Shown: one piece after another, positions 2,157 to 64,000 of the stretch
Numbering within the stretch: the stretch's first letter is position 1
How the letters are laid out: each line of letters starts with the position of its first letter
IMG/VR virus record: IMGVR_UViG_2693429668_000006
DNA: 64,000 nt
DNA from: a virus
Taxonomy: Duplodnaviria > Heunggongvirae > Uroviricota > Caudoviricetes
Strand: one strand, 5' to 3'
Made by a program: the position numbers and the translations under genes
The notes under the pieces: generated by a model
What the model was told of the DNA's origin: nothing
Database searches by the model: none
Seen by the model: the letters and a program-made list of their open reading frames with translations, nothing else

Positions 2157-2543
2157 ATGTCTGATAACAAGATTGAATTTATAGAAAGTCGCTACGCTGC
2201 TTTTATCGCAGGGTTGATTGAATCCTCACCTATGAGCCAGGCCCAGATAGCCAAAACAATTGGGTATAAAAACGCCAACAACCTTTCTTTAATTAAAAGC
2301 GGCAAAATTCCTTTGCCTATCGATAAGGTTCGTCCGCTGGCGCTGGCACTGGGCATTGAGCCAAGTCGTCTTATGATGATGGTGCTGGAAGAACGCCAAC
2401 CCGAACTCGCAGCATTTTTATACAAAGAAGGCACTGCTCCTCTTAACGAGGACGAAAAACAGGTTCTTGCTGCATATAACGAGCGATTCGGTAAAGAGAA
2501 AGGCGCATCACAAAAGGTTGTTGAGGCCATAAAGTCTCTATGA
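2157..2543 (+). CDS. HTH XRE-family transcriptional regulator
   Basis: Helix-turn-helix-like segment SQAQIAKTIGYKNANNLSLIKSG; divergent from integrase. Confidence 0.55.
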   Translation: MSDNKIEFIESRYAAFIAGLIESSPMSQAQIAKTIGYKNANNLSLIKSGKIPLPIDKVRPLALALGIEPSRLMMMVLEERQPELAAFLYKEGTAPLNEDEKQVLAAYNERFGKEKGASQKVVEAIKSL

Positions 2544-3641
2544 AAAATTTACACGAATAAGCTCTGTTGATAGACGATCTCCCTTAAATTTGTGGTCAAT
2601 TTCGTCTAAATCCGGTTGCTCTACGATTGATGCGATGTACGTCGAGAAACTTTCTAAGGCGTCTCGCATCTCGTCCATATAATCGTGCCGGTCGTAGACC
2701 CGATCTATCCCCTCAAGACTGTGGTTCATGATTTTACGTGATACCTCCTGGCTTATGCCTAATGCTGGGAAGTAACTACGCGCAGTACGGCGCAAATCTC
2801 GGGGTGTAAATGGCTCAAGCTCCATCAGTTCTGGTCGTTCCAGAATACGACGTAATGCCTGGGCTATTGCCACTTTAGACATAGGAAGGTCTTTCCCGAT
2901 TTTTTTATTCGAAGGCACGAGCCACTGGCTGTCTTTACCATATTCGAACAACTCTTCAATACAAGTGCGCATTAATGAGCTTAAAGGCAGAGAATGCTCA
3001 CGGGCAGATTTGTTCCTCTTGCCTTGATTCCAAACCCCACGCTTAAGATTGAACTCACTTTTTTTAGCCCGCAGTACTTCGTCAGGTCGTCTTGCGGATA
3101 CAAGACATAGCCTGGCCGCCCATTTTGTACCAGCGCACACATTGAAGTAGTCCCATATATTCCAGAACACCCATACCTCTGCGTCGGTCAGCTTCCGCTC
3201 GCGAGGTGTGGGCTTTGCGCCACCGGCAACTTTGTTAAGTGACATATCGTTTAACGGTGACACGTCTATCATCCCCTGGAAGGCGCACCAGCTAAGGAAC
3301 TGCTTCATCAGAGAGAAAACGCGGCGGCCCATAACAATTTTGCCATCCAGTATTAGTGGGTTGACCAGTTGGTTCACCATGAACCTATTAATGTCACTTA
3401 CTTTTACATCGGCAATGTGCGGCAAAACATGTATCAAAATACAATGAACAGCGATCTCTGGCCGACGTCTGGTTATCAGCAGAGATAAGCGAGTGAATAA
3501 CATGAATGCGTCCGAGAATCTCATGTCATTGCTGACCTGGGAGATCATAACGGCCTGCATTTGAGATGCTCTTTCGAGATACTCTATCGCCTCTTTTGAG
3601 GTGTTCTCCGCAGCGCGTGCTCTGTCAAAGCTATTTTTCAT
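2538..3641 (-). CDS. tyrosine recombinase / phage integrase
   Basis: C-terminal region RDLRRTARSY...HSLEGIDRVYDRHDY resembles tyrosine recombinase catalytic region; true start may be an internal Met. Confidence 0.7.
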   Translation of the reverse strand: MKNSFDRARAAENTSKEAIEYLERASQMQAVMISQVSNDMRFSDAFMLFTRLSLLITRRRPEIAVHCILIHVLPHIADVKVSDINRFMVNQLVNPLILDGKIVMGRRVFSLMKQFLSWCAFQGMIDVSPLNDMSLNKVAGGAKPTPRERKLTDAEVWVFWNIWDYFNVCAGTKWAARLCLVSARRPDEVLRAKKSEFNLKRGVWNQGKRNKSAREHSLPLSSLMRTCIEELFEYGKDSQWLVPSNKKIGKDLPMSKVAIAQALRRILERPELMELEPFTPRDLRRTARSYFPALGISQEVSRKIMNHSLEGIDRVYDRHDYMDEMRDALESFSTYIASIVEQPDLDEIDHKFKGDRLSTELIRVNFS

Positions 3642-6664: not shown

Positions 6665-6751
6665 TGGCGGAGAGTAATGGAATCGAACCATCATCGTTTG
6701 CACAATGGGACGGTTTTCAAGACCGCTTGAGCACCATGCTCCCTACTCTCC
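6665..6751 (-). tRNA. tRNA-Ser-like (anticodon UGA), type II, 87 nt
   Basis: Acceptor GGAGAGT/ACTCTCC, anticodon loop CTTGAAA, T-loop TTCGATT, 3' GCCA; hand-folded, D-arm not fully resolved. Confidence 0.5.
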
Positions 6752-7045
6752 AATTGTGTTGTGTGCTCCGTTTCGTGGAGCTAACGGCGGGTGATCAGAC
6801 CGCACCAGGTTGGACGTATTTCAGCGTTATGCTGTTGCAAGAGAGCCAAATTGTGATGGCCGGTGCTGATCTCCGGCATTGCCTACGTTAGCGGCCTTCA
6901 GGCAGTTCATCCGCTTGCTTCTACGTCGCACATCAGCCTGTGCATTCACCACAATGTTGAGAACACTGGTTGTCACGCTGCAACGCAACATTATATTCAT
7001 AAATTGGGATATGAACCCGTTACGCCAATGTTCTCAATATTATGT

Positions 7046-7121
7046 TGGTGCCGGTTAACGGACTTGAACCGCTGGCCATTTGCTTACAAAGCGACTGCTC
7101 TACCAACTGAGCTAAACCGGC
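7046..7121 (-). tRNA. tRNA-like, possibly tRNA-Thr (UGU), with imperfect anticodon stem (possible pseudo-tRNA)
   Basis: Good acceptor (GCCGGTT/AACCGGC), D-arm and T-arm, 3' ACCA, but anticodon stem GTCGC/GCAAA pairs at only 3 of 5 positions. Confidence 0.4.
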
Positions 7122-7125
7122 AATT

Positions 7126-7212
7126 TGGTGGGGAGTGATGGAGTCGAACCACCCGAGTCGCAATGACAGTAGATTTACAGTCTACACCGCTACCTCTACG
7201 GACTAACTCCCC
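7126..7212 (-). tRNA. tRNA-Tyr (anticodon GUA), type II, 87 nt
   Basis: Acceptor GGGGAGT/ACTCCCC, anticodon stem-loop GTAGA-CTGTAAA-TCTAC, long variable arm, T-loop TTCGACT, 3' ACCA; differs from host tyrT. Confidence 0.6.
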
Positions 7213-7217
7213 TAAAT

Positions 7218-7292
7218 TGGCGATGGTGGGTGGATTCGAACCACCGATCAGTTGGTTAACAGCCAACTGCTCTACCGCTGAGCTACACCATC
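7218..7292 (-). tRNA. tRNA-Asn (anticodon GUU), 75 nt
   Basis: Canonical cloverleaf: acceptor GATGGTG/CACCATC, D-arm GCTC-AGCGGTA-GAGC, anticodon stem-loop GTTGG-CTGTTAA-CCAAC, T-arm GGTGG-TTCGAAT-CCACC, 3' GCCA; sequence differs from host tRNA-Asn. Confidence 0.75.
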
Positions 7293-7678: not shown

Positions 7679-8081
7679 TGCTGGCTAACCATACCAGCCG
7701 GGCTACGTCGCCGCTTTTTAACCCAGTATAAACGACATAATTGAACAAAATGACGTAACAGGATGGGCGGTCAGTGGCTAAGAATCCGGGAGTGATATGG
7801 AGTTGGAAATATACCGACCGCCCATTCTGTTACTTCATCGGAGAGGGCATGGGTGGTGCCGTATCATGCCCTCTCCTGCGTTCTGCAATCACACTCGCTC
7901 AGTGTGTCCCATTTCGGTAACGAGGCTGGAAACTGACCTCGCTGGTGTTTGGCTTATTAGGCTACTGCCAGATAGACTTCTTCGTTTGCACTTGTATTTA
8001 AGTTCAAACAGTCGCGTCTCAACGAAAACAAAGCCATCTTATACATAAAAGATAAGTAAGTAAATACTTATCGTGATGTTT

Positions 8082-8372
8082 TTATTCGGTTGTGACTTTT
8101 TTGATCATGGCCACTCTACGATCAGGTGTTCTTGTGATGGTTGCAGTGAATCGTTTCGCTTGGATAGTAATGGTTTCGTTCTCCTTAAGTTGCCCGTAGC
8201 GAGTTTCCACCAGGGTGCCAAGACGCCACAGGCAATCATCGATACGTTTATGACTGGCAAATTTAATCAGCAGCAGTTTTACGACTAACTGACCTACGTA
8301 AAAGGCGAATCCGACTCCAGTCGCGATGAAATAGTGTACCAACCACCAGTCCCAAGAAGTTAAATTGCTCAT
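8082..8372 (-). CDS. hypothetical membrane protein
   Basis: ORF track; hydrophobic segment WDWWLVHYFIATGVGFAFYVG; start ATG overlaps stop of upstream small ORF (ATGA). Confidence 0.45.
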   Translation of the reverse strand: MSNLTSWDWWLVHYFIATGVGFAFYVGQLVVKLLLIKFASHKRIDDCLWRLGTLVETRYGQLKENETITIQAKRFTATITRTPDRRVAMIKKVTTE

Positions 8373-17112: not shown

Positions 17113-18819
17113 TTAATGATTGAGTATTTTATTAACACGCAGCTTATTAAGTGTTGATTTTGAAGCAACTTCCTCCAAAGCTTCTATTGCTTTATCAGTG
17201 ATGCTCTTCTGTTCGTCTGTCGGGTGTTGCATACCCTTGAACTTGAGCATAGTCTCTTCTACTAAATTCAAAGCATCCTGATCACAGGATAATATCCAGT
17301 TTACGTAATCATCTTTAGAAAAACTGTTAAGAATATTCACATCACTATGGTTAAATCTTCCACCAGCTATTTTTTTTATAATTTTATCTAAGTTATAGTC
17401 ATCTGGATTTCTATCTTTCAATTTTTTTTCAATTCTGAAACCTAATTCTTCATTTCCGAAGATCTCTACTCGCAAAGAATTAAATGTAGCATACGCATTG
17501 TCTTTATTAACAAAAGCATCTGCATATGCCTCTATAATATTATTACAATCTCTATCCAATTTGATTAGGACATTTATTAAACCTACGAACTGTCCAATTG
17601 GTATACGCAACAGACTATCGTTAATTACGCGCTCAATTTGAAAAATAAACTCTGATTCATTATCTTTAAAAGAGTTTCTAAAAACATCCCAAATTTTATA
17701 AACCTCACATAAAACCCTATTATCTCTATATTGTTCATTTTTTTCTTTTATTATATTTAGAATATTGCTTTCAGAAGACACATAACCGTTCTTAAGGTAA
17801 AAATCTATATCATCATCGAAAGCACTTTCTGCTCGTTCATAAATAATATCAAGGCTATTAACAAATGAATATACAGAGTTAACTTCTTCCTTTTCATCTT
17901 TATCATCTAACATATAGTCGAATGCATGTATATTTTTGATTGACTCCTTAAATGAAGCATAATCAACGCTAGGAACACCAAAATAGTAAACCACTGAAAA
18001 TAAGACCAATCTATTAATAAAACTTTCTCTAACCTTATCCTCTGCTAACTTTAGCACATCTCTAAATATAACTAGAGATGATTTTATTTTATTTAATATT
18101 CTAATGTTTTTGATGTTTAAATCATTTGCTAGGTTTTTTAACAAAAGAAAATCAGGGTCAGTCTCATAAAAAACTTTTCTTAAGTTTTTCTCAGGCGTGG
18201 GATCGTATTTTATTTCCACATCAATTATTTTTTCTCTATACTCTAAAAACTGTTGTTGTGCAGTTTCTTCATGTAAGTTATCTTCATTTAATATTAGAAC
18301 AACCTTGCAATTTTTTCTTCTTGCCAACTCATCAATTACCCCCATAATCTCTTTAATTTCTAGCGCACTACCTTTTCGTTCAATATCATCAATGCAAACC
18401 AAATAATTATTAACAAATTTATACTCAAGAGATGACAGCAGATTATCAGTTTTGAACCCAAAAAAATCGTTCTTTCCAAAATGTATTAAAAATTTTGACA
18501 AGGAGTTGTATTTCAACCATCCCCAAAACCCATTTCTATAACGAATCATAGTTCGATCCGTTTCAGATAAAATCAGTTCTTTATATTTCTTTTCATTAAT
18601 TGGTGTGGCACAATGATAAAGAGCTTTTTTAATGTCTCCAATAGAATTTATTCCAAACAAAGAAACATATGAATATGCATTAAAATCTAATTTTTTAGAA
18701 TGTTTAGTATAAAAGCTATTCCAATAATGCGTTTTACCTACTCCCCAATTTCCTTTTATGACAGCAACCCGATGATCTGAGTCCAAAAAATTTTTTAAAA
18801 ATACTTCTATCGATTCCAT
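17113..18819 (-). CDS. KAP-family P-loop NTPase (candidate defence or abortive-infection protein)
   Basis: N-terminal Walker A KGNWGVGKTHYW matches KAP signature GxWGxGK[ST]; 568 aa; strongly AT-rich relative to neighbours. Confidence 0.55.
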   Translation of the reverse strand: MESIEVFLKNFLDSDHRVAVIKGNWGVGKTHYWNSFYTKHSKKLDFNAYSYVSLFGINSIGDIKKALYHCATPINEKKYKELILSETDRTMIRYRNGFWGWLKYNSLSKFLIHFGKNDFFGFKTDNLLSSLEYKFVNNYLVCIDDIERKGSALEIKEIMGVIDELARRKNCKVVLILNEDNLHEETAQQQFLEYREKIIDVEIKYDPTPEKNLRKVFYETDPDFLLLKNLANDLNIKNIRILNKIKSSLVIFRDVLKLAEDKVRESFINRLVLFSVVYYFGVPSVDYASFKESIKNIHAFDYMLDDKDEKEEVNSVYSFVNSLDIIYERAESAFDDDIDFYLKNGYVSSESNILNIIKEKNEQYRDNRVLCEVYKIWDVFRNSFKDNESEFIFQIERVINDSLLRIPIGQFVGLINVLIKLDRDCNNIIEAYADAFVNKDNAYATFNSLRVEIFGNEELGFRIEKKLKDRNPDDYNLDKIIKKIAGGRFNHSDVNILNSFSKDDYVNWILSCDQDALNLVEETMLKFKGMQHPTDEQKSITDKAIEALEEVASKSTLNKLRVNKILNH

Positions 18820-18870: not shown

Positions 18871-19230
18871 TCACCCTTTCTTCATCAACTCGCGTTTAAT
18901 TTCATCGGTACGCATCGTGACATCGGCAGCTGTGATCGCCTCGTTAAGTTTCACGATGTCCTCGATTTCCTGCGGTGTCTTCTCCGCAAGATGGAAAATA
19001 GCAGCACGAATCACGTCAGAACGAGTGAACTTCTCGAAGCGAGGGATGAACTTCATCATCTCCAGCAGTTCGAAGTATTCGTCCTCCAGTGACATTGTGC
19101 GGCTTTTAATTTTCTCTTTGCCACGAGTCGGGCGTCCCTGTGGTCTGACTGGTTGGCGCAAAGGAGTTGTGTTCTTAGCCGGTGCATCAGGCTCTTTGCG
19201 CTTTGCTAGGTCACCCATTTTCATGGACAT
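18871..19230 (-). CDS. small partition protein (ParG-like ribbon-helix-helix centromere-binding protein)
   Basis: 119 aa, immediately downstream of ParA with overlapping start/stop; RHH-like C-terminal segment. Confidence 0.45.
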   Translation of the reverse strand: MSMKMGDLAKRKEPDAPAKNTTPLRQPVRPQGRPTRGKEKIKSRTMSLEDEYFELLEMMKFIPRFEKFTRSDVIRAAIFHLAEKTPQEIEDIVKLNEAITAADVTMRTDEIKRELMKKG

Positions 19231-19898
19231 TATTCTTCTTCCTCCAGACTCAACAGATAATCTACAAATTCTTCAAACTCGGCTTCCGCCTTTTTGTCGC
19301 GCTCGCTACCGGTCATTTCAAAGATAGAACGACCAGACTCTTCCGCATCATCATAGACGTTGCGGTTATATAGATTGACTGGCGCAGACTCGATGCCAAA
19401 CGTCTCAACAATCTCTTTAGCCGCCAGAATGCGAGACACTTGTGATGGCAAAGCCGGGCACTGGTTCATGACCGCGCGGACCTTCACTTTATCGTTTACA
19501 TTACGAACATTGTCGATAATAGGATCGATGTCACGCAGAGATTTCAAATCACGACGCTTAGGACGAAGCGGGATAATGATAACGTCGGCCATCAGCATCG
19601 CTTGTCGCTGAATTTCGGAGTCAAAGCCACCAGCATCTACCACTACAAACTCAGCTCTACCCTGAAGCGATTTTAGGTGCTTAATGATGTCATCCTGAAC
19701 GTATGCAAAAGGAATCAGCTCAAGGTCTTCGTTCTGTCGACGGTCTTCACACCAGCTTGTTGTCGTGCGCTGAATATCTATATCAGTGATATAAACCTTC
19801 TTCTTCTTTTTGACTTTCAGGCAAACGGCAATTTGCTGGGCAACGGTGGATTTGCCAGGCCCGCCCTTTGTGCCGCCAACCACAAAGATCTTGGTCAT
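19230..19898 (-). CDS. ParA-family partition ATPase
   Basis: Deviant Walker A VVGGTKGGPGKST at N-terminus; 222 aa. Confidence 0.75.
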   Translation of the reverse strand: MTKIFVVGGTKGGPGKSTVAQQIAVCLKVKKKKKVYITDIDIQRTTTSWCEDRRQNEDLELIPFAYVQDDIIKHLKSLQGRAEFVVVDAGGFDSEIQRQAMLMADVIIIPLRPKRRDLKSLRDIDPIIDNVRNVNDKVKVRAVMNQCPALPSQVSRILAAKEIVETFGIESAPVNLYNRNVYDDAEESGRSIFEMTGSERDKKAEAEFEEFVDYLLSLEEEE

Positions 19899-19933
19899 TG
19901 GAGAGTTCCCTTTGCGTCTATTATTATCGTCTG

Positions 19934-19950
19934 AAACAACTTGTTTTCTT
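19934..19950. promoter_or_regulatory. operator-like palindrome AAACAACTTGTTTTCTT upstream of parA
   Basis: Recurring AACAAnTTGTT motif; adjacent palindromes GTACGGTGATATGCCGTAC and GGCTATAGCC in the 19898..20178 intergenic region. Confidence 0.4.
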
Positions 19951-20216: not shown

Positions 20217-20486
20217 ATGTCAGCACTAAAAAAGCAGCGCATCGATTTGAGATTAACCGATGACGATAAAAGCATCATCGAGGAAGCTGCCGCAATGTCT
20301 AACCAGAGCATTACTCAGTTTATGGTTAGCAGTGCATCTGAACGTGCCGTGAAAGTTATAGAGCAACACCGTAGACTAGTTCTGAATGAAGAATCCTGGA
20401 ATCTGGTTATGGACGCTATAAGCAATCCTCCGGCACCGAACGACAAGCTGAAACGAGCTGCTGATCGTCTGAAAAGCATGGAGTAG
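20217..20486 (+). CDS. DUF1778 / TacA-like antitoxin
   Basis: 89 aa, MSALKKQRIDLRLTDDDKSIIEEAAAM...NPPAPNDKL; SD AGGAGG before ATG at 20217; immediately upstream of GNAT gene. Confidence 0.65.
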   Translation: MSALKKQRIDLRLTDDDKSIIEEAAAMSNQSITQFMVSSASERAVKVIEQHRRLVLNEESWNLVMDAISNPPAPNDKLKRAADRLKSME

Positions 20487-20493
20487 TTTACTC

Positions 20494-21015
20494 GTGAGCA
20501 ATACAACGATAGAGATTTTCTCTGGAGAGAAAGATTATGATCTAAACGGTTTTGATTGCGGCGAAGAGTCACTAAACGCCTTTTTAGCCAACCACTTAAA
20601 AAGGCAGCATGAGGGAAAAATTCTTCGTGCTTATGTGCTTTGCACTCAAGAAGAAAGGCCAAAAGTGTTAGGATATTACACTTTGTCAGGTAGTTGTTTT
20701 GAAAAGGAGTCCTTACCTTCAAGAAGCAAACAAAAGAAGGTTCCTTATCGGAATGTTCCAAGTGTTACTTTGGGTAGGCTGGCTTTGGACAAGTCCCTTC
20801 AAGGTCAAGGATTTGGCTCAATGCTTGTAACACATGCAATGCGCGTTGTGTACAATGCATCTCTTGCTGTAGGCATTCATGGACTTTTCGTTGAGGCGTT
20901 AAATGACAAAGCCAAGGCGTTTTATAAAAGTTTAGGCTTTATCCAGCTGGTTGGTAACAACGAGCGTTCTTTGTTCTATCCTACAAAATCTATCGAAAAA
21001 TTGTTCGAAGAATAA
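20494..21015 (+). CDS. GNAT-family acetyltransferase toxin (TacT/AtaT-like)
   Basis: 173 aa GNAT fold with ...LQGQGFGSMLV... acetyl-CoA motif; paired with DUF1778 gene; GTG start. Confidence 0.65.
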   Translation: MSNTTIEIFSGEKDYDLNGFDCGEESLNAFLANHLKRQHEGKILRAYVLCTQEERPKVLGYYTLSGSCFEKESLPSRSKQKKVPYRNVPSVTLGRLALDKSLQGQGFGSMLVTHAMRVVYNASLAVGIHGLFVEALNDKAKAFYKSLGFIQLVGNNERSLFYPTKSIEKLFEE

Positions 21016-50409: not shown

Positions 50410-51071
50410 GAATGGACCTCATCATGACTACCATTGTGATATTCCACCTTCACGCGTTCTTTGTAGTGCTTGGTGATCTGCATATCAGGGCGCAGCGCGT
50501 TCTTCAGGTCTTCGTGAGTCGTCGCCACCATTACCGTCGCACCAACCTTTCGAGCGGCACGCTGGAGGTTAGACGCCACAACCTGAGCGGTTACACGGTC
50601 GAGAACAGCGCCGAACTCGTCAGCAGCCCATACTTTAGCGCCTGACTCAATCAGTTTGGCAATCTTGAGACGATATTTCTGGCCGTCTGACATTTCAGAA
50701 GGCTTGCGAACAAACAGATATGCATCGTTCAGACCAGCCATAGATAACAACCCAAGCGCATCACTGGTCGTTTTGCCCAACTGATCGATGACGTTAACCT
50801 CATTATCGAAGGTAAAATCATCGATGGAGGCTACAGACAGCCCTTCATCCTTCATCTGTCGTTGCAACTCGCGCAGCACAACGGATTTGCCGGAACCGGA
50901 TTGGCCGGTGATGTACACCACATCGCCCTGCTTCACTTCCAGCTCCAGATTGTCGTAAAGCGTCCACTCTTTTTCGTCCAGGCCAAGCCCGAACGACTCA
51001 GCGATTTCCAACGTGCGCGTGGTTTTATTTACGCGTGTCTGAAACGATACGTTGATGATGTATTTGCTCAT
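50406..51071 (-). CDS. ABC-type ATPase (soluble, single nucleotide-binding domain)
   Basis: Walker A GQSGSGKS, signature MSDGQKYRL, Walker B KVWAADEF, H-loop VATTHE. Confidence 0.65.
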   Translation of the reverse strand: MSKYIINVSFQTRVNKTTRTLEIAESFGLGLDEKEWTLYDNLELEVKQGDVVYITGQSGSGKSVVLRELQRQMKDEGLSVASIDDFTFDNEVNVIDQLGKTTSDALGLLSMAGLNDAYLFVRKPSEMSDGQKYRLKIAKLIESGAKVWAADEFGAVLDRVTAQVVASNLQRAARKVGATVMVATTHEDLKNALRPDMQITKHYKERVKVEYHNGSHDEVHS

Positions 51072-51736
51072 GCAGCCATCTCCCCGGAAGAGATCTTCTC
51101 CGCATATGCCACAAATGCGTCTACCCCGCTTTCTCCCGTCATTTCTTCCATATGGGCAAGCAAATCACCAACAACAATGGCAGAGCCAGCAGGGAGCGTT
51201 TTAAAGCCCAATACGTCGACAACACGTACTTCTTCCGCTGCAACTTCACGACTGATCTCGGTGTGTTCATCCTTCTGTCGTTTAGTTTCTTCGCCAAGAT
51301 CGATAACTAGCGAGTCGGTGTCCATTTCTTCTGTCATACTGCCAACGAGAACATTCAACTCACGCTCTTCAAAGCCGAAAACCTCGATATCGTCCAGAAC
51401 AAGCGACTCAAGCTCTTTCTGTAGCTTAATTGCATCGTAATCAATGCTGGCAAGTCGGTTATCTTCAAGGCGCTTCGCACGAACCTCGTCATCACTGAGA
51501 TCATCGCGAACAATAACCGGTACGCGCTCAAGTCCAGCAAAAATTGCAGCCTCACGGCGGCCGTGGCCAGTAATAATTACGTCGTTCTTATCGACCGTAA
51601 TTGGCTGGTCAAATCCGCGCTTTTTAATGGCTGCGGCTAGATCTCGGATCTGCTGTTCATCATGCTTTTTGGCATTCATCTCATAGGGAATAAGATCTGC
51701 CGGGTCGCGATATACGATTTCAAACTTTTTGGTCAT
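51068..51736 (-). CDS. ParB-like nuclease domain protein
   Basis: ParB/Srx motif ITGHGRREAA; acidic C-terminus; start set at ATG 51736 overlapping upstream stop. Confidence 0.55.
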   Translation of the reverse strand: MTKKFEIVYRDPADLIPYEMNAKKHDEQQIRDLAAAIKKRGFDQPITVDKNDVIITGHGRREAAIFAGLERVPVIVRDDLSDDEVRAKRLEDNRLASIDYDAIKLQKELESLVLDDIEVFGFEERELNVLVGSMTEEMDTDSLVIDLGEETKRQKDEHTEISREVAAEEVRVVDVLGFKTLPAGSAIVVGDLLAHMEEMTGESGVDAFVAYAEKISSGEMAA

Positions 51737-52434
51737 TACATACGCTCCTTGTAGTAGTCGACCAGCCACACCAGAGCCTCACCAGCGTTCTCCATTTCAT
51801 TACCGGTGTTAATAGCCTGCTCTTTGATGATGTTTTTTATGGTTTCTGCAACACGATCTGACGCATCGAAAGTTACTTTGAAGCGCATGGTCTGATGTTC
51901 CGCACCCACACGTTCGGTTTTCTCTCGTTTGTCGGTATCGACAGGCTCATCACTACCACGAGACAACGCCTCCAGTGCTTCAAGGTCGATTGCCGCCTCT
52001 TTTGCTAAAACCATCGAGATTTCGTCGTCATACGGAGCGATTTCAGACAGTTGATAGTCAAGTTCTGACTGAATTTCTTCAATGAAGCGTTGCAATGCGA
52101 TTTGGTCGTCTTCACCGTATCGCTCGTTGTCCACCAGTGACATCTGTTTAGCTACGACATCGCTAATTTTGCCCACAGAAAGCACCGGAACCGTTGAAAT
52201 TCCTTGCTCAATAGCAGCACGCCAGCGATGTTCGCCGCCGAGGATTTCAAAAAATCCATCTTCAAGTTCACGAGCCAAAATTGGCTTAAAAAAGCCCAAT
52301 TTTTCGATAGAACCTTTCAGTTTTTCAAAATTCTGCGCACCAACCGAATTGGTGTTCCAGGTATTCGGGCGAAGGTTGGCAACATCAACCTGCAAAATCG
52401 TGATTTTTACATCCATTTTATTGCTACAATCCAC
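51736..52434 (-). CDS. ParB-like nuclease domain protein (second copy)
   Basis: ParB/Srx motif ILGGEHRWRAA. Confidence 0.55.
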   Translation of the reverse strand: MDCSNKMDVKITILQVDVANLRPNTWNTNSVGAQNFEKLKGSIEKLGFFKPILARELEDGFFEILGGEHRWRAAIEQGISTVPVLSVGKISDVVAKQMSLVDNERYGEDDQIALQRFIEEIQSELDYQLSEIAPYDDEISMVLAKEAAIDLEALEALSRGSDEPVDTDKREKTERVGAEHQTMRFKVTFDASDRVAETIKNIIKEQAINTGNEMENAGEALVWLVDYYKERM

Positions 52435-58260: not shown

Positions 58261-58412
58261 CGTTGTACGAATAAGGCGTCAAAGTGGAAAGTTGCGGTAG
58301 CCGGACGGGAACAGGTGGGTTTGTCGGTTGCCTGGAGGTAAGAGGTTGGTGTTTTTAGCCTGCGGGAAACAGGATGGTCATTTAAGGCCACCAGCATTGG
58401 TGGCCTTAATCT

Positions 58413-58700
58413 TTAGTGGAGCAGACCGATGTCGATGGTATCCCCTGAATCATCCACACGGATCATCAGCATGGCAAAGGCGTTTAGTGGATAGCTTGCG
58501 TGCCATTCAGGGAAGCGGTCATCTCGCATGAAGTCGGCAATGTCGTAAACGCATCCCTCAAAGTGGAAGAATCGCGTGCTTACCTGCTCGTCATAATCCA
58601 CATGATCCATTTCTTGCTGTTCTGTTTCCGGCAAGTCCAGCCATGATTCAAGAAATACATTTTGTGCTTTAGGGGTAATGGTGAAATCAGTCATGAGCAT
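58413..58700 (-). CDS. hypothetical small acidic protein (accessory array)
   Basis: ATG at 58700 with SD GAGG; ORF track start at 58826 would overlap the promoter element. Confidence 0.4.
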   Translation of the reverse strand: MLMTDFTITPKAQNVFLESWLDLPETEQQEMDHVDYDEQVSTRFFHFEGCVYDIADFMRDDRFPEWHASYPLNAFAMLMIRVDDSGDTIDIGLLH

Positions 58701-58883
58701 ATCCTCACTGCGTAAACATGTTGTTTTCTTGTTGGTGTAATTATCGCAGTGTAGATAAGGCATAAAAGAAGTTAATACAGGCTGAATACACAAGAAAGGT
58801 TCTGGAAGTTGATAGCCAGGTTTCAAACTAACCTTCGGTTATTAAAAGTCATTTAAGACCACCAATGCTGGTGGCCTTAATAA

Positions 58884-59027
58884 TTATCGCCCGATTACGC
58901 TAAGGATCTTTTCCTCAACTGATTTGTTGTTGCGACTAAACTGCCTTGCGTATCTGATGACAGAAGAGGCGTTTTGCTTTCTGACCATCTCGGCTCTTTC
59001 CTTCAGGCGTTTCTTGAAATCGCCCAT
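58884..59027 (-). CDS. possible small basic protein (47 aa)
   Basis: Hand-translated MGDFKKRLKERAEMVRKQNASS...; below ORF-track cutoff; hairpin 58855..58878 downstream. Confidence 0.25.
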   Translation of the reverse strand: MGDFKKRLKERAEMVRKQNASSVIRYARQFSRNNKSVEEKILSVIGR

Positions 59028-59029
59028 AT

Positions 59030-59404
59030 TTACCACCAGGCGCAGAAGGTCAGTCTGTTATTGTGAAAGTCGTGGTTCTTAATCAGATCTTCCACAAGCT
59101 CTTTCAACTCCCCCACATCATGCCAGTAACCTTCATCGTACTCCTGACTGCCGAAGAAAAAACCTTCCCGGGTAGGCAAGTACTCTTCGCAATTACTTTC
59201 GTTTATGTGCATCAAATGAGCCTTCAGAAAACAAATGTCATTCATCGTTAATTCTAAAAGCTCACAATTTTCGACTTCACCTACGTTGCGCTCCATCCAC
59301 CCAACGAGCGCATTGAACTTACGGAAGTAAGCAACCTGCTTTCTGGATGCCTCGTTATTCAGATCGTTTTTAGGCTGTGTCTCGATATAGATATCAAGTC
59401 CCAT
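59030..59404 (-). CDS. hypothetical protein (accessory array)
   Basis: ATG at 59404 with SD AAGGAA. Confidence 0.4.
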   Translation of the reverse strand: MGLDIYIETQPKNDLNNEASRKQVAYFRKFNALVGWMERNVGEVENCELLELTMNDICFLKAHLMHINESNCEEYLPTREGFFFGSQEYDEGYWHDVGELKELVEDLIKNHDFHNNRLTFCAWW

Positions 59405-59490
59405 GATGGTTTCCTTATTAAGTTGCTTCAGTGAAATCATTTTCACAAATCAGATAAGGCAGAAAACAAATTGTTATCGGGCTTAATAAA

Positions 59491-59517
59491 ATGGCGCGGT
59501 TTACGCGCCATTTAAAG
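59491..59517 (-). terminator. rho-independent terminator after gene 59522..59917
   Basis: Hairpin ATGGCGCG-GTTTA-CGCGCCAT followed on minus strand by TTTATT. Confidence 0.5.
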
Positions 59518-59521
59518 AGGA

Positions 59522-59917
59522 TTAAGCGAATACGCTTTCAGGGATTAAGGTGTCGGCAGGAATGCCAGAGGTAATGCGCAGGCCGTACTGACCAATCCAG
59601 GTAGTGTTGGTATTCAGGTTGGAGGCGAATACGGTGTTAACCATATTCATCATGGTTTCAAACACCTCTTCATCAACCTGGCGGAAGTAGCTCTCGATTT
59701 TCAGCAGCAGCGGGTCAGTTGCATCGAGAATGGACTGGTATTGAGTCGCGTACTCGCCGTCGGAGTCATCACCTTTACGCACGATCGTACTGGCCTGTAC
59801 TTCGGCGCCAGTTTCGGTGTTGTACGTAACAACGGTGATTTTTGCCACATTCTTACCTTCGGCGGTTTCAGAGGCATAGTAAACATCAACTGTCAGTTTT
59901 TCGCGTTTAATGGTCAT
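59522..59917 (-). CDS. hypothetical protein (accessory array)
   Basis: ATG at 59917 with SD GGAGAG. Confidence 0.45.
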   Translation of the reverse strand: MTIKREKLTVDVYYASETAEGKNVAKITVVTYNTETGAEVQASTIVRKGDDSDGEYATQYQSILDATDPLLLKIESYFRQVDEEVFETMMNMVNTVFASNLNTNTTWIGQYGLRITSGIPADTLIPESVFA

Positions 59918-60043
59918 TTCACTCTCCGTAGTGTATTGGTTATTTTTATATTCTATGATCGTAAGTATGTACTTACAATACAAAAAAGCCCCGTAAGGAT
60001 GGCGGGGCTGTCGTACTGTCGACTAATTACCACTTGCACATTA

Positions 60044-60355
60044 TCAGGCTATTGCCATCACTGATGCTCTCTGAATCTCTTGCTGGGCCACGCGGTTAAC
60101 TTCCATCAAGGCCAGTTCGAGCTGATGTTCCGGCCACATTCTTTGAAATGCCACCCAGCCTTTTCCACGCTGGCGACGAACATTCATTACATAACGAGTA
60201 AAGGTGTTTTTATCGAAAGACACCGCTGTTTCACGGAACAGACGAATAGAGGTTCCATTGGCAACGATGTCCAGCAAAGTTAATTGAGCAACCAGCGCAG
60301 GCTTCTCTTTTCTCTTCTGGTCTTTGTCCAGACCAAGAACCAATGATTTTTTCAT
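60044..60355 (-). CDS. hypothetical basic protein, possible DNA-binding (accessory array)
   Basis: ATG at 60355 with SD GGAG; 103 aa. Confidence 0.4.
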   Translation of the reverse strand: MKKSLVLGLDKDQKRKEKPALVAQLTLLDIVANGTSIRLFRETAVSFDKNTFTRYVMNVRRQRGKGWVAFQRMWPEHQLELALMEVNRVAQQEIQRASVMAIA

Positions 60356-60508
60356 CACAACTCCGTAAACAACTTGTTTTCTCAATGGCGTAAATAATAC
60401 CAGTAAGAAAACGGCTACAAAGCATAATGATCAGGTGCATGATCGATATGCAGGTTCTTCCCTGCGGCTATAGAGAAATTAAGCCAGCAATGCTGGCTTT
60501 GGTTGGGA

Positions 60509-60838
60509 TTACGCGAATACCTCAAGAAACTCCTGAACGTCCCAATGCTGGACGAGGTGAAGATAGACCTTAGAAATCACGTCATTTTCGCTATCGCATG
60601 TGAAGTAGTACTTCTGGCTGCGGTTGTATGTGTCCACACAAAATTCGCTCATATCCATAAAGTCAGCATCTTCACCCATGTCGCAAATCATCAAAGCAGG
60701 TGCATCATCACGAGTCATCAGCTCAAGCACCCACCGCGAATTGATCAGAGTGGAAGACCAACCTTCCAGCTCATAGAACTGGTCAAACTCTTTTTGAGTC
60801 AATTTCTTGATTTGGTTGATGTCGATATGTGCAAACAT
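60509..60838 (-). CDS. hypothetical acidic protein (accessory array)
   Basis: ATG at 60838 with SD AAGGA; the first ATG in the ORF lies inside the conserved operator motif. Confidence 0.4.
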   Translation of the reverse strand: MFAHIDINQIKKLTQKEFDQFYELEGWSSTLINSRWVLELMTRDDAPALMICDMGEDADFMDMSEFCVDTYNRSQKYYFTCDSENDVISKVYLHLVQHWDVQEFLEVFA

Positions 60839-61202
60839 AAAGCAATCCTTAAACAACATGTTTTCTTGATGGTGTTATTATCGCAATAACGCACAGGCGA
60901 AAAAGGATTTTATTCCGGTGAATGTGGTTTTGGCAGTGAGTTTTCAGGTTCAGTACCGAGAACACTTTTTACATTATTCTGATTTAGTGGCCGAAGGTGG
61001 CTGGTGGGCAGAATAATCATCTCCCCGAAAACCTACTGAAATCGATTGTGACCCGTTGGCTGTCTGGCACAATTACGCTGTAGCTGGGCATTCAGAGGGA
61101 ATCCAGCGGTAAGTAAGTTCGCCTGCACGTGAGCGCCTCTCTTCTTCCCGCACATTACAGGTGGGTAGCCGCAACTCTCCCTCACGCTATACCGGTACGC
61201 CG

Positions 61203-61337
61203 CCGTTCCTGAACCGGCATCGAGCCTTTTCCCGAAACCCACACAGGCAACTCGACCGTTTCCCTGAAAACCTCCAGCCGTTCCCCGAAGGCAACCCAGC
61301 CGTTTCTGTAGCGGGATGCAACCTTTTCCCTGTATGG
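61203..61337. repeat. iteron cluster 2 (six CCGTTTCCC-type repeats phased about 21-22 bp)
   Basis: Repeats start at 61203, 61225, 61257, 61278, 61299, 61322. Confidence 0.6.
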
Positions 61338-62400
61338 ACCGAAGGCTGACCGTAGGGGTGTTACGGGGGATAAAATCAGGAGTTGAATAAATACGAAAAA
61401 GGAGGCGACACCCCTCCTTCCCTCCCCACTTATACATACCTGGCTTCTTCGCTATACATGTTGTGTTTTATCTGTCTCAACCTCTCTATAGGCGTTAATG
61501 CTCACTCCTTCCAGAATGTTCTATACGGCGACTATTTCTGTTGGTGAATTGGGCGTGTTGTTCTCTCTGTCGGTGTAAATGGTTTCGTTCGTTTTGCGGT
61601 GGTTCTTCTATGGGGTGTTCTCGTCGTTTTGGTGATTGTTCTTCTCCGTGTATGGAGTAATGGCAGGTGGGCGATTGCTTTCGTTATTGTGTTTGAGTTG
61701 TTTGTCTGGAGTGTGTGAAAGGCTTTTGTAGTTATTCGTGTATTGGGTAATGGCGTTTCCCGTGATTGTTATGTTTCGTGTCTTTTGGGATTGAGAGAAA
61801 CCTTGCGGTTACAGGCTTCGTTGGGGTTTCAGCGGTTCAGGTGTTTCTTCGCTGTTTGGGTAATGGCGTGTCGTGGGTATCGCGCGTATGAATGTTTTCG
61901 GATTGCCTGTGAAAGTTAGGTTGGTTGTCCGGTAGCCTGGGGAGAAGAGGTGGGTCTTTTCGGTAGCCTGCCATAAAGAGGTTGGTTGTTTTGGGGAATG
62001 GCATGTGTGTTATTTAGTTGTTTTGTTATGCCTGAAAATAAGTTGTTTATATGGTTGTGTAACGCAACGGGAACGATTTTGAGCGTGTGTTTTTGTTGGT
62101 AGTGTGTTGGGTCGTCTGTGGTGAAAATTGGACGCTGTGGCGCTGTCTGCTGCGTAGAATTACGGGTATAAGCAGTGATGTGTGAAAACGTCAATTTTTT
62201 AGACCAAATCGGATGAAAGCGTTGATGTTTCGTTGATCTGTTATTCAGTTGTTTTCTTGATTGTATAAACAACTATAACTTATTGATATTTAAGGATGTG
62301 ATTGCGGGTATGGAAGGGGAGTAGTGGCGATCAACGGATTCTTATAGAAAAGAATCAAATTGTGACCGCCATTATCAACGGTTTGAATCTGTTTGCAGAT

Positions 62401-62700
62401 TTACCAGTTCCAGCACTCAAGCCCTTCAACGACCGGCGCACCACAATCAAAATGTACAGAGTCAAAGCCTACATCAAGTACTTTCTGAATGTTAGCAATC
62501 GCGCCTTCGGATATACCATATCGACGCAAGTCGTCTTTCCAGACATCATCCTGTAACCCGGCGTGGACAATACAACCGCCGTCAATTTGCGAAACCCAAT
62601 CCAGCTCATTGCTTGCGATCATGAATCGGCGAGCATCTTCCTCTGATGTATGAGATGAGCTGATCAATGCCACCTGGTAGGCTTGGGTAATGTTCAACAT
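62401..62700 (-). CDS. hypothetical protein (last gene of element before host junction)
   Basis: ATG at 62700 with SD GGAG; operator-type motifs at 62713..62779 upstream. Confidence 0.4.
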   Translation of the reverse strand: MLNITQAYQVALISSSHTSEEDARRFMIASNELDWVSQIDGGCIVHAGLQDDVWKDDLRRYGISEGAIANIQKVLDVGFDSVHFDCGAPVVEGLECWNW

Positions 62701-62815
62701 TTCAACCACTCCAAAACAAGTTGTTTTCTTATGTGGTTTATTATCTCCATCAACAAAAGGCAGAAAACAAATTGTTTTAGGTACTGTGTAAATCAGAAGG
62801 GATTGTGTCTATATG

Positions 62816-62848
62816 AAAATGCCCGGCGTGTTGCCGGGCATTGCGAAG
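62816..62848 (-). terminator. metG transcription terminator
   Basis: Hairpin GCCCGGCAACACGCCGGGC directly after metG stop on minus strand. Confidence 0.5.
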
Positions 62849-62861
62849 AGAGGTTGTTTAA

Positions 62862-64000
62862 TTACTTAACCTGGTGGCCAGGTTTAGCACCAGCATCCGG
62901 GCTTAACAGGAAGATATCTTTCCCACCGGGGCCAGCAGCCATCACCATACCTTCGGAGATACCGAAGCGCATTTTACGCGGAGCCAGGTTAGCCACCATA
63001 ATGGTGTGACGACCAATCAGTGCCTGTGGGTCTGGATAAGCAGAACGGATGCCTGAGAAGACATTGCGTTTTTCACCACCTAGATCCAGCGTCAGACGCA
63101 GCAGTTTGTCAGAGCCTTCAACAAACTCCGCGTTTTCAATCAGCGCCACGCGCAGGTCAACTTTGGCGAAGTCATCAAAGGTGATGGTTTCCTGAATCGG
63201 ATCGTCTGCCAGCGGGCCAGTAACTGGCGCGGCAGTGGCTTTCACTTCTTCTTTAGAGGCTTCCACCAGTGCTTCAACCTGCTTCATGTCGATGCGGTTA
63301 TACAGTGCTTTGAACGGATTAACTTTGTGCGCCAGCAGCGGTTGCTGGATACCATCCCAGGTCAGTTCTGTATTCAGGAATGCTTCTGCACGTTCAGTCA
63401 GTTTCGGCAGTACCGGCTTCAGGTACGTCATCAGCACGCGGAACAGGTTAATGCCCATAGAGCAAATCGCCTGCAGATCGGCATCGCGTCCTTCCTGCTT
63501 CGCCACCACCCACGGAGCCTGTTCATCGACATAGCGGTTAGCCAGGTCAGCCAATGCCATGATTTCACGGATAGCTTTACCAAATTCGCGGCTTTCCCAT
63601 GCTTCGCCAATCACTTCAGCGGCATCAGTAAAGGTTTTGTACAGTTGCGGGTCAGCCAGTTCGCTTGCCAGCACGCCGTCAAAACGCTTGTTGATAAAGC
63701 CTGCATTACGGGAGGCCAGGTTAACCACTTTGTTCACGATATCGGCATTCACGCGCTGAACGAAATCCTCCAGGTTGAGATCGATATCATCAATGCGCGA
63801 AGAGAGTTTCGCAGTGTAGTAGTAACGCAGGCTGTCAGCGTCAAAATGATTCAGCCAGGTGCTGGCTTTAATAAAGGTGCCGCGAGACTTGGACATCTTT
63901 GCGCCGTTCACCGTCACATAGCCATGAACAAACAGGTTGGTCGGCTTGCGGAAGTTGCTGCCTTCCAGCATGGCAGGCCAGAACAGGCTGTGGAAGTAAA
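62862..64000 (-). CDS. metG: methionyl-tRNA synthetase, C-terminal part (5' end beyond window)
   Basis: Translation ends ...[23 protein letters not shown] and matches the enterobacterial MetG anticodon-binding and C-terminal tRNA-binding domains. Confidence 0.9.

Follow-up and report, generated by a model that had tools for sequence, protein, structure and literature searches.

The right-hand end of the 64,000-nucleotide (nt) stretch of DNA analysed here (IMG/VR virus record IMGVR_UViG_2693429668_000006; hereafter the window) passes from phage and plasmid genes into metG, the gene for methionyl-tRNA synthetase (MetRS). A first-pass annotation had taken this transition, at positions 62700-62870, for the junction between an integrated element and its host chromosome. 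Our analysis points elsewhere. The region is very probably a boundary between modules, ancestral and internal to a phage-plasmid of the SSU5/pHCM2 type, a circular element of about 110 kb that carries a captured metG-apbC segment and has no attachment site. Where phage DNA borders on a housekeeping gene, a chromosome junction is not thereby proven; copies of such genes, derived from hosts, are carried by large phage-plasmids, and comparison with plasmid and phage records settles such edges at once. The flagged boundary is a known kind of feature in a known, well-sampled element family, and its wider interest is limited to the metG-apbC cargo, which is under-described, and to the exchange of sequence between this cargo and the host gene.

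Judged from sequence comparison, the window is part of an SSU5/pHCM2-like phage-plasmid of the Escherichia coli lineage, about 110 kb in length. Positions 1-27901 are 99.99% identical to 17100-45000 of NZ_CP151018.1, the circular 112,650-bp plasmid p19KM1803_1 from an E. coli isolate of a cat; the right part of the window stands at 99.0-99.8% overall, with 99.8% over 58848-64000. The annotation of p19KM1803_1 combines phage genes (tail, capsid, portal, terminase) with plasmid genes (a RepB-type initiator, a ParA-like ATPase, ParB-like proteins) and genes of DNA metabolism (dnaE, a dnaB-like gene, primase, ligase, nrdAB, thyA, dfrA51). A search of a phage collection returned the Escherichia phages CMS-2020a, PhiR41_1 and Cyrano at 95-98% identity to the window and Klebsiella phage-plasmids at ~79% over about 19 kb. 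Structural and packaging genes are homologous and syntenic to those of Salmonella phage SSU5, with 81% nucleotide identity over 9.2 kb of structural genes. Members of the SSU5/pHCM2 family are extrachromosomal plasmid prophages (PMC7969092, PMC8085198, PMC3999498). The E. coli members (pECOH89, pAvM_E1373_29 and the phages Cyrano, PhiR41_1 and CMS-2020a), to which the present element is 95-100% identical and with which it agrees in gene order, are ~100-120 kb in size, circular as plasmids, equipped for RepB, ParA and ParB functions and rich in genes of DNA metabolism. That the element is a phage-plasmid, as the first-pass annotation had proposed, is borne out by the near-identical records, which are circular plasmids with RepB, ParA-like and ParB-like genes, and by the phage records of like genome (Cyrano; PhiR41_1, for which the host is given as K-12 MG1655).

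The boundary downstream of metG

Read from left to right, the region begins with a small gene of the DUF5983 family (62401-62700, minus strand; 99 amino acids; Pfam PF19419, E = 6.9e-11), which is annotated as a coding sequence in p19KM1803_1 and pYPE3. It starts at an ATG at 62700-62698, with GGAGTGG at 62706-62712. Twelve nt upstream of the start codon lies a perfect palindrome, AAAACAA-G-TTGTTTT (62713-62727; operator O1), and further up a second one, AAAACAA-A-TTGTTTT (62764-62778; operator O2), which overlaps a -35-like TTGTTT at 62765-62770. Between them, a -10-like element on the minus strand, GATAAT/TAATAA (62738-62745, GATAAT being 62745-62740), completes a putative promoter of the DUF5983 gene. 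O1 is conserved in an alignment with SSU5, S56 plasmid B and Cyrano, and the block TTATTATCTC at the promoter is invariant in the window and in the same three relatives. Homology to SSU5 and S56 plasmid B, both of which lack metG here, covers this promoter-operator block and then stops: the blastn match to SSU5 ends at 62781 (14747 of the extended locus L002) and homology in the alignment at about 62784, and the next genes differ in those relatives. We place the mosaic joint at 62784-62786.

Beyond the joint comes a module-specific spacer of 76 nt (62786-62861, minus strand) and then the metG stop codon at 62862-62864 (TTA on the plus strand). The spacer is kept in 30 of the 30 phage-plasmid loci examined, in a 149-nt layout, and in a second lineage (L137); no homologue was found downstream of metG in 81 chromosomal loci (80 from species-representative genomes and that of K-12). 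It holds the predicted intrinsic terminator of the element-borne metG (62812-62842, minus strand; 10 bp of stem around a loop of 5 nt, with a short U-run), in which the hairpin AAUGCCCGGC/GCCGGGCAUU at 62818-62842 is followed by UUUCAU and has a folding energy of -19.1 kcal/mol (z = -5.9). Eight sequence variants preserve the stem, one of its pairs running through G-C, G-U and A-U. Transcription of metG, leftward from its own promoter region, would end at the hairpin (62842-62818), and the backbone would resume at ~62784. Homology to the chromosome begins exactly at the stop codon, at 62862, and ends at the stop codon of apbC.

The two sides of this boundary occur together on circular plasmids and in phage genomes. 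With the DUF5983-spacer-metG junction as query, 214 records in 5,426 complete E. coli genomes matched over at least 80% of its length, and the 30 best listed were without exception plasmids, 101-121 kb in size. What chromosome copies have in common with the query is the coding part of metG alone, about 71% of its length, and 5,423 chromosomal places match from the metG stop codon onward only, at 92.8-93.9% identity. A 7.8-kb backbone probe (portal, terminase, parB) was found in 260 of the same 5,426 genomes, at 432 plasmid places and at no chromosomal place. In PLSDB, the module is present at 95% identity or more in some 190 plasmids, from Escherichia and Shigella and nearly all non-mobilizable. 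Both metG and apbC are present in the phage records Cyrano, PhiR41_1 and CMS-2020a, and element genes flank the pair on both sides in circular plasmids of 100-120 kb as well as in phage records. SSU5 itself and the ~83%-identity lineage of S56 plasmid B differ in this respect, having other genes and no metG-apbC at this position.

These comparisons bear directly on the proposal that the element had integrated downstream of metG by site-specific recombination, with a right attachment site (attR) inside 62780-62860. The idea has its attractions. A tyrosine recombinase gene is present, ancestry changes sharply at 62784-62862, and a sharp change of this sort beside a host-type housekeeping gene and a terminator does recall a λ-type attR. 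What is found here differs from such a site on every other count: no chromosome lies beyond, no core is duplicated, no empty site is seen in related chromosomes and no integrase is adjacent, the recombinase gene lying internally some 59 kb away, as the first-pass annotation had itself remarked. A search for repeats of 62775-62870, 12 nt or longer, found none in the rest of the window; at the apbC end of the module there is only an 8-nt chance match to the junction, and two isolated 12-nt matches elsewhere in the element are compatible with chance. In the comparison that had been advised, alignment to an uninterrupted region downstream of metG, K-12 matches up to the stop codon only, has a different terminator and shows no empty site. 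Because metG is of the plasmid type, the K-12 terminator differs, no core is repeated and the backbone is absent from the chromosomes of the 5,426 complete genomes, we conclude that 62700-62870 contains no attR. The junction is, moreover, common to a lineage with a deeply diverged apbC. Site-specific integration at this place has, in our estimation, a negligible probability.

The individual features that the first-pass annotation had listed (two perfect operators, a strong hairpin, the metG stop codon) are all real, and a true boundary between backbone and host-like DNA does lie within about 40 bp of the spot it had chosen. However, the host-like DNA is not chromosome; it is the metG-apbC of plasmids and phages, and the flagged region is internal to the element. 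The element would normally be a circular plasmid of ~110 kb that relies on RepB, ParA and ParB functions and has no attachment site. If such elements integrate at all, they would do so through homologous recombination inside metG or through insertion sequences (IS), and not at an attachment site in 62700-62870.

The joint at ~62784-62786 appears to be old, because the second lineage has it too. Since some relatives carry extra genes there, it also qualifies as a local insertion hot spot: a gene with an HD_4 domain or an open reading frame (ORF) of 80 amino acids lies between metG and the DUF5983 gene in these cases (L119, 7254-7949; L120, 6773-7015; NZ_CP027369.1). In L119, the 3' end of metG and the spacer are apparently duplicated beyond the insert.

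The metG-apbC cargo

The window holds the 3' 1,139 nt of the element-borne metG (62862-64000, minus strand), cut by the window end; in relatives the gene has 2,034 nt and encodes 677 amino acids, of which the window covers residues 300-677 only. It is 99.8% identical to plasmid copies and 92.8-93.9% identical to chromosomal ones. The full-length MetRS (677 amino acids) of a near-identical plasmid is 98.7% identical to that of K-12, from which it departs by nine conservative substitutions. The HIGH (as HLGH) and KMSKS signatures and the Pfam domains tRNA-synt_1g, Anticodon_3 and tRNA_bind mark it as a class I MetRS. Exact look-ups showed that MetRS protein alleles are common to both types of replicon; because alleles occur on both, protein identity does not discriminate between plasmid and chromosome.

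In relatives, the complete module spans 3.3 kb and comprises metG and a divergent apbC, a gene for an Fe-S carrier, with homology to the chromosome from stop codon to stop codon, intergenic region included. Between the two genes, only the 60 nt upstream of the metG ATG are conserved with K-12, and the palindrome is absent throughout. Against K-12, metG shows 94.0% nucleotide identity, with a synonymous divergence (dS) of 0.30 and a ratio of nonsynonymous to synonymous divergence (dN/dS) of 0.023. The corresponding figures for apbC are 82.4%, 1.56 and 0.023, its protein being 94.5% identical to that of K-12, and the gene is about equally far (80-83%) from Escherichia, Citrobacter and Salmonella. 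Both genes are under strong purifying selection. Because their divergences differ, the two halves of the module are of different depth. The plasmid-type ApbC, of 366 amino acids, begins with MSESKSP and the chromosomal one, of 369, with MNEQSQAKSP; on the chromosome, the gene downstream of metG is a DUF4132 gene (yehH). A homologue search with the plasmid ApbC returned no exact representative of its 366 amino acids.

Through a divergent ApbC (P0074), a second lineage was found (L136-L139), with the same DUF5983-spacer-terminator-metG-apbC layout. Its apbC has 76% nucleotide and 81% amino-acid identity to the present one, and its metG matches that of K-12 at 96.9%, rising to 99.1-99.6% in 226-nt windows. 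The right flank of this lineage is different, consisting of BOF, hok/gef and a cytochrome c peroxidase gene. The simplest reading of all this would be one old capture of an mrp/apbC-metG segment, followed by recurrent conversion of metG. The pair would have been taken up once, long ago, from an enterobacterial chromosome and trimmed to both stop codons; thereafter the better-conserved metG would have been repeatedly converted by the host chromosomal copy, and apbC would have been too diverged to recombine with its counterpart.

Being intact, under purifying selection and equipped with a promoter region and a predicted terminator of its own, the captured metG invites comparison with the morons and translation genes of phages; four tRNA genes and numerous replication genes of host-like character are found on the same element. 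In most SSU5-like phage-plasmids of E. coli, strong purifying selection maintains both an intact second MetRS gene and an Fe-S carrier gene. The literature that we searched makes no mention of a metG cargo on SSU5/pHCM2-like elements. One candidate explanation, that the plasmid MetRS is an inhibitor-resistant variant, was considered and set aside: the nine conservative substitutions relative to K-12 give no sign of inhibitor resistance or of altered specificity.

Beyond the module, p19KM1803_1 and pYPE3-114k continue in the order metG, apbC, humD, hot, a type I restriction-modification system (hsdMSR), nrdAB, thyA, dfrA51 and repB, and the humD-hot pair beside apbC is 87% identical to genes of phage P1. 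Outside the window, at 18120-18156 of the extended locus L002, a hairpin, GGCGGTGCATTGCACCGCC, lies directly after the apbC stop codon and is followed by the P1-like humD-hot; because of this succession, the region presents itself as a patchwork of host-derived and P1-derived modules.

Allele exchange within metG and the question of integration

Alleles of metG in plasmid context are patchworks. Their chromosome-type sites are clustered (permutation p ≤ 0.005 in most), and tracts identical to K-12 reach 290 nt. The window ends in such a tract: its last 247 nt (63754-64000, minus strand; nt 896-1142 of metG) are identical to a common chromosomal allele, with the switch to the plasmid type falling between 63754 and 63837. 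Over 8,001 nt the window equals the nearest plasmid-size contig (L144) except at 63924, 63900 and 63837, all within 88 nt at the window's edge. For 63826-64000, the best-listed hits are without exception chromosomal metG genes at 100% identity, and 2,225 records match at 99% or better; the chromosomal metG of strain 602354 is identical over the whole of 63754-64000 (up to nt 1142). The window's own variants of the tail fibre and of proteins of 109 and 134 amino acids lie on contigs of at most 200 kb in 1,184 of 1,186 blocks, and every context shown is of the plasmid type. Most likely, the terminal 247 nt represent a recent short conversion tract on a plasmid.

A RecA-dependent single crossover between the two copies of metG could have left a similar trace. 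The present copy would then be chromosomal, with the changeover between allele types (63754-63837, within metG) as its joint to the host and with the chromosomal apbC and yeh genes beyond the window. Identity of the last 247 nt to a chromosomal allele, next to a remainder that equals the plasmid-type contig, is what such an event predicts, and the mosaic alleles show that the two copies of metG recombine. The same structure appears in five draft E. coli contigs of 210-535 kb (L091/L127, L092/L128, L095, L098/L132 and L099/L133), which join chromosomal DNA to phage-plasmid DNA within metG in the order rcnA-rcnB-yehABCD-yehE-apbC (369 amino acids)-metG, its 5' part chromosomal and its 3' part of the plasmid type, then DUF5983 and the backbone. 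Four of the five show the chromosomal state at every one of the 44-49 consecutive diagnostic sites that precede the switch on the 5' side; in L098 most of these sites are chromosomal, with a few plasmid-type ones among them. Three of the contigs exceed the chromosomal part and the full element taken together. Rare cases of integrated P1-like phage-plasmids have also been reported, their cause not being known (PMC10879196). Nevertheless, none of the 260 complete genomes that carry the element has its backbone in the chromosome, the window's own variants are almost confined to the smaller contigs, and a short conversion tract on a plasmid, of a kind that is common, yields the very same 247-nt signature. 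An origin of the present copy by crossover integration is very improbable.

It is also worth considering that the window and the five hybrid drafts are chimeras, produced when a short-read assembler crossed from the plasmid to the chromosomal metG through an identical stretch. Between plasmid and chromosomal alleles there are stretches of exact identity 83-290 nt long, equal to or above common k-mer sizes, and one plasmid allele (L123) contains a chromosome-type tract (nt ~745-1059) that would be an exact repeat in its own host. Hybrids are seen in draft assemblies only, and related contigs end inside metG (L146 and, by its geometry, L103). On the other hand, read pairs should resolve shared runs that are shorter than typical insert sizes, the five assemblies stem from different projects and join at differing switch points, and for three of the contigs two wrong joins would each be required. 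As a common explanation for the window and all five drafts, misassembly strikes us as very improbable. A rough Bayes estimate for any hybrid context of the window, real or chimeric, comes to about 4-12%, that is, roughly one in ten.

The preferred reading, that of an internal boundary within a circular phage-plasmid, has points to its discredit, and these must be counted. The window ends inside metG, so that the apbC of the present copy and everything beyond it lie outside the sequence, and no complete plasmid with the window's terminal chromosome-type tract was found among the 5,426 complete E. coli genomes or in PLSDB. A donor of the module was not found among 80 of at least 590 chromosomal metG loci from species-representative genomes, a sample outside which E. 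albertii, E. fergusonii and other named non-coli Escherichia fall; the nearest metG genes were those of E. coli and Escherichia sp. E1V33, at 93-94%. Scans of 61400-63000 made no promoter call at the DUF5983 gene, whose hexamers are weak, with a 19-nt spacing to the -35-like TTGTTT, and no consensus terminator call at the metG hairpin, whose U-run is only 3-4 nt long. Covariation in the terminator comes from a single variable pair and did not reach significance against shuffled controls. Lastly, the palindrome is a predicted operator to which no repressor has been assigned. All of these weigh against one or another part of the account given above.

Whatever the status of the present copy, the hybrid drafts raise a more general possibility. 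One could envision the captured metG as a portable homology arm, allowing occasional and reversible RecA-dependent integration at the chromosomal metG and giving rise to states like those of high-frequency-recombination (Hfr) strains or specialised-transducing phages; some of the hybrids would then be real. We put this forward tentatively, as a possibility to which we give somewhat less than even weight, and it is unlikely that the window is itself one of the resulting joints. Any junction of this sort would lie inside metG and not in 62700-62870. The analogy is with Hfr formation by the F plasmid. Here too, the element has a stretch of homology to the chromosome (2 kb at 94-97%), mosaic alleles testify to exchange, and the hybrid contigs are structured as expected of a single crossover. 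In contrast to F, the shared sequence is a housekeeping gene and not an IS, the element is a phage and not a conjugative plasmid, and integration is putative.

Element DNA was encountered on other large molecules as well. A look-up of the DUF5983 protein returned mostly plasmid-size contigs, with 22 of 4,415 blocks on contigs above 200 kb; one of the recombinase returned element DNA in the 5.57-Mb chromosome record CP043541.1 (L106), in a 2.72-Mb contig (L108) and in several contigs of 250-450 kb. These larger molecules could be true integrations, by homologous recombination or through an IS, or assembly chimeras formed via identical metG tracts. In the chromosome record, phage-plasmid DNA (L106, 4447-6590), equivalent to the window from ~8105 toward the integrase, abuts prs-dauA-ychH-pth-ychF, and the joint beside ychF carries a remnant of an IS91-family transposase with duplicated ends. 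This arrangement suggests an IS-mediated integration at a site unrelated to metG.

The repeated rewriting of metG by the host copy offers a natural system in which plasmid-chromosome gene conversion can be measured. Recombination in metG also suggests a route of integration without an attachment site, and draft assemblies of carrier strains may break or be mis-joined at this gene.

Predicted operators and other features of the element

The palindrome upstream of the DUF5983 gene is one of many. Allowing up to two mismatches, AAAACAA-N-TTGTTTT has 15 matches in the window where 1.17 are expected, and none of 100 shuffles reached 15. In 12 of the 15 cases a minus-strand start codon follows at a distance of 10-64 nt. 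The genes behind these copies include a cobT-like gene, a dnaB-like helicase gene, parA, a terminase-containing operon and every gene of the small array at 57.7-62.7 kb, a leftward series of small operator-controlled genes of which DUF5983 is the first. At the level of sequence, enrichment, position and conservation are those expected of a candidate repressor operator. Because the palindrome, in a two-operator layout like that at DUF5983, recurs in front of operons for replication, partition and packaging, one global repressor encoded by the element most likely binds to it and would keep these operons silent in the plasmid-prophage state. Candidate regulators encoded by the element are a 174-amino-acid protein of the Flag1_repress family (about 54.8-55.4 kb) and a regulator of 128 amino acids (2157-2543). 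At the DUF5983 promoter, O2 would occupy the -35 region and O1 the interval between the -10 element and the ribosome-binding site, and the promoter would drive the DUF5983 gene together with the small-gene array downstream.

The plasmid prophage of P1 has dispersed operators of the C1 repressor, with an asymmetric 17-bp site, and a non-integrative tyrosine recombinase, Cre. The element described here resembles it in that one short operator stands before many operons and in that its tyrosine recombinase need not serve integration; it differs in that the predicted operator is a symmetric 15-bp palindrome, and the two backbones are unrelated. The recombinase gene itself (2538-3641, minus strand; Pfam Phage_integrase) is annotated as a site-specific integrase within circular plasmids, and a role in dimer resolution is likely; a general statement on the recombinases of phage-plasmids is given in PMC7969092.

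Partition functions are represented in the window, in keeping with the first-pass annotation, by a ParA/MipZ-type ATPase gene (19230-19898, minus strand; identified with Pfam) that has an operator copy at 19933-19947 in front of it, and by two genes with ParB_N domains at about 51068-52434 on the minus strand, known from annotation and from Pfam ParB_N hits in homologous loci. The iterons that had also been claimed did not materialize: Tandem Repeats Finder detected no iteron-like array in the window, and the repB gene lies outside it. What had been taken for iterons may be the GT-rich non-coding DNA at 61438-62120 and 58292-58384, which consists of loosely repeated units of ~30 nt and has no annotated gene in RefSeq relatives; the repeats include CGGTAGCCTGG..A.AGGT.GGT at 58292-58384 and 61926-61992.

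Within the small-gene array, a 437-bp cassette (58411-58847) that is absent from p19KM1803_1 contains a small ORF and an operator copy of its own (58713-58727). On either side of the cassette, at 58377-58415 and 58848-58886, stands a palindromic hairpin, TTAAGGCCACCA..TGGTGGCCTTAA, and the array seems to grow by hairpin-bounded cassettes of this kind.

Elsewhere, at 20217-21015 on the plus strand, the window encodes a DUF1778/TacA-like antitoxin and a GNAT acetyltransferase toxin, a pair of the TacAT/AtaRT type. Toxins of this type acetylate charged tRNAs, and it is tempting to speculate on a functional link between the pair and a MetRS gene on one element. Four tRNA genes (Ser-TGA, Thr-TGT, Tyr-GTA and Asn-GTT) are clustered at 6665-7292 on the minus strand, and an Rfam search returned tRNAs only. 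The DNA beside this cluster, at ~7990-8105, is the site of ISEcp1-blaCTX-M in one relative (L102) and of the IS91-like joint in another, the chromosome record L106.

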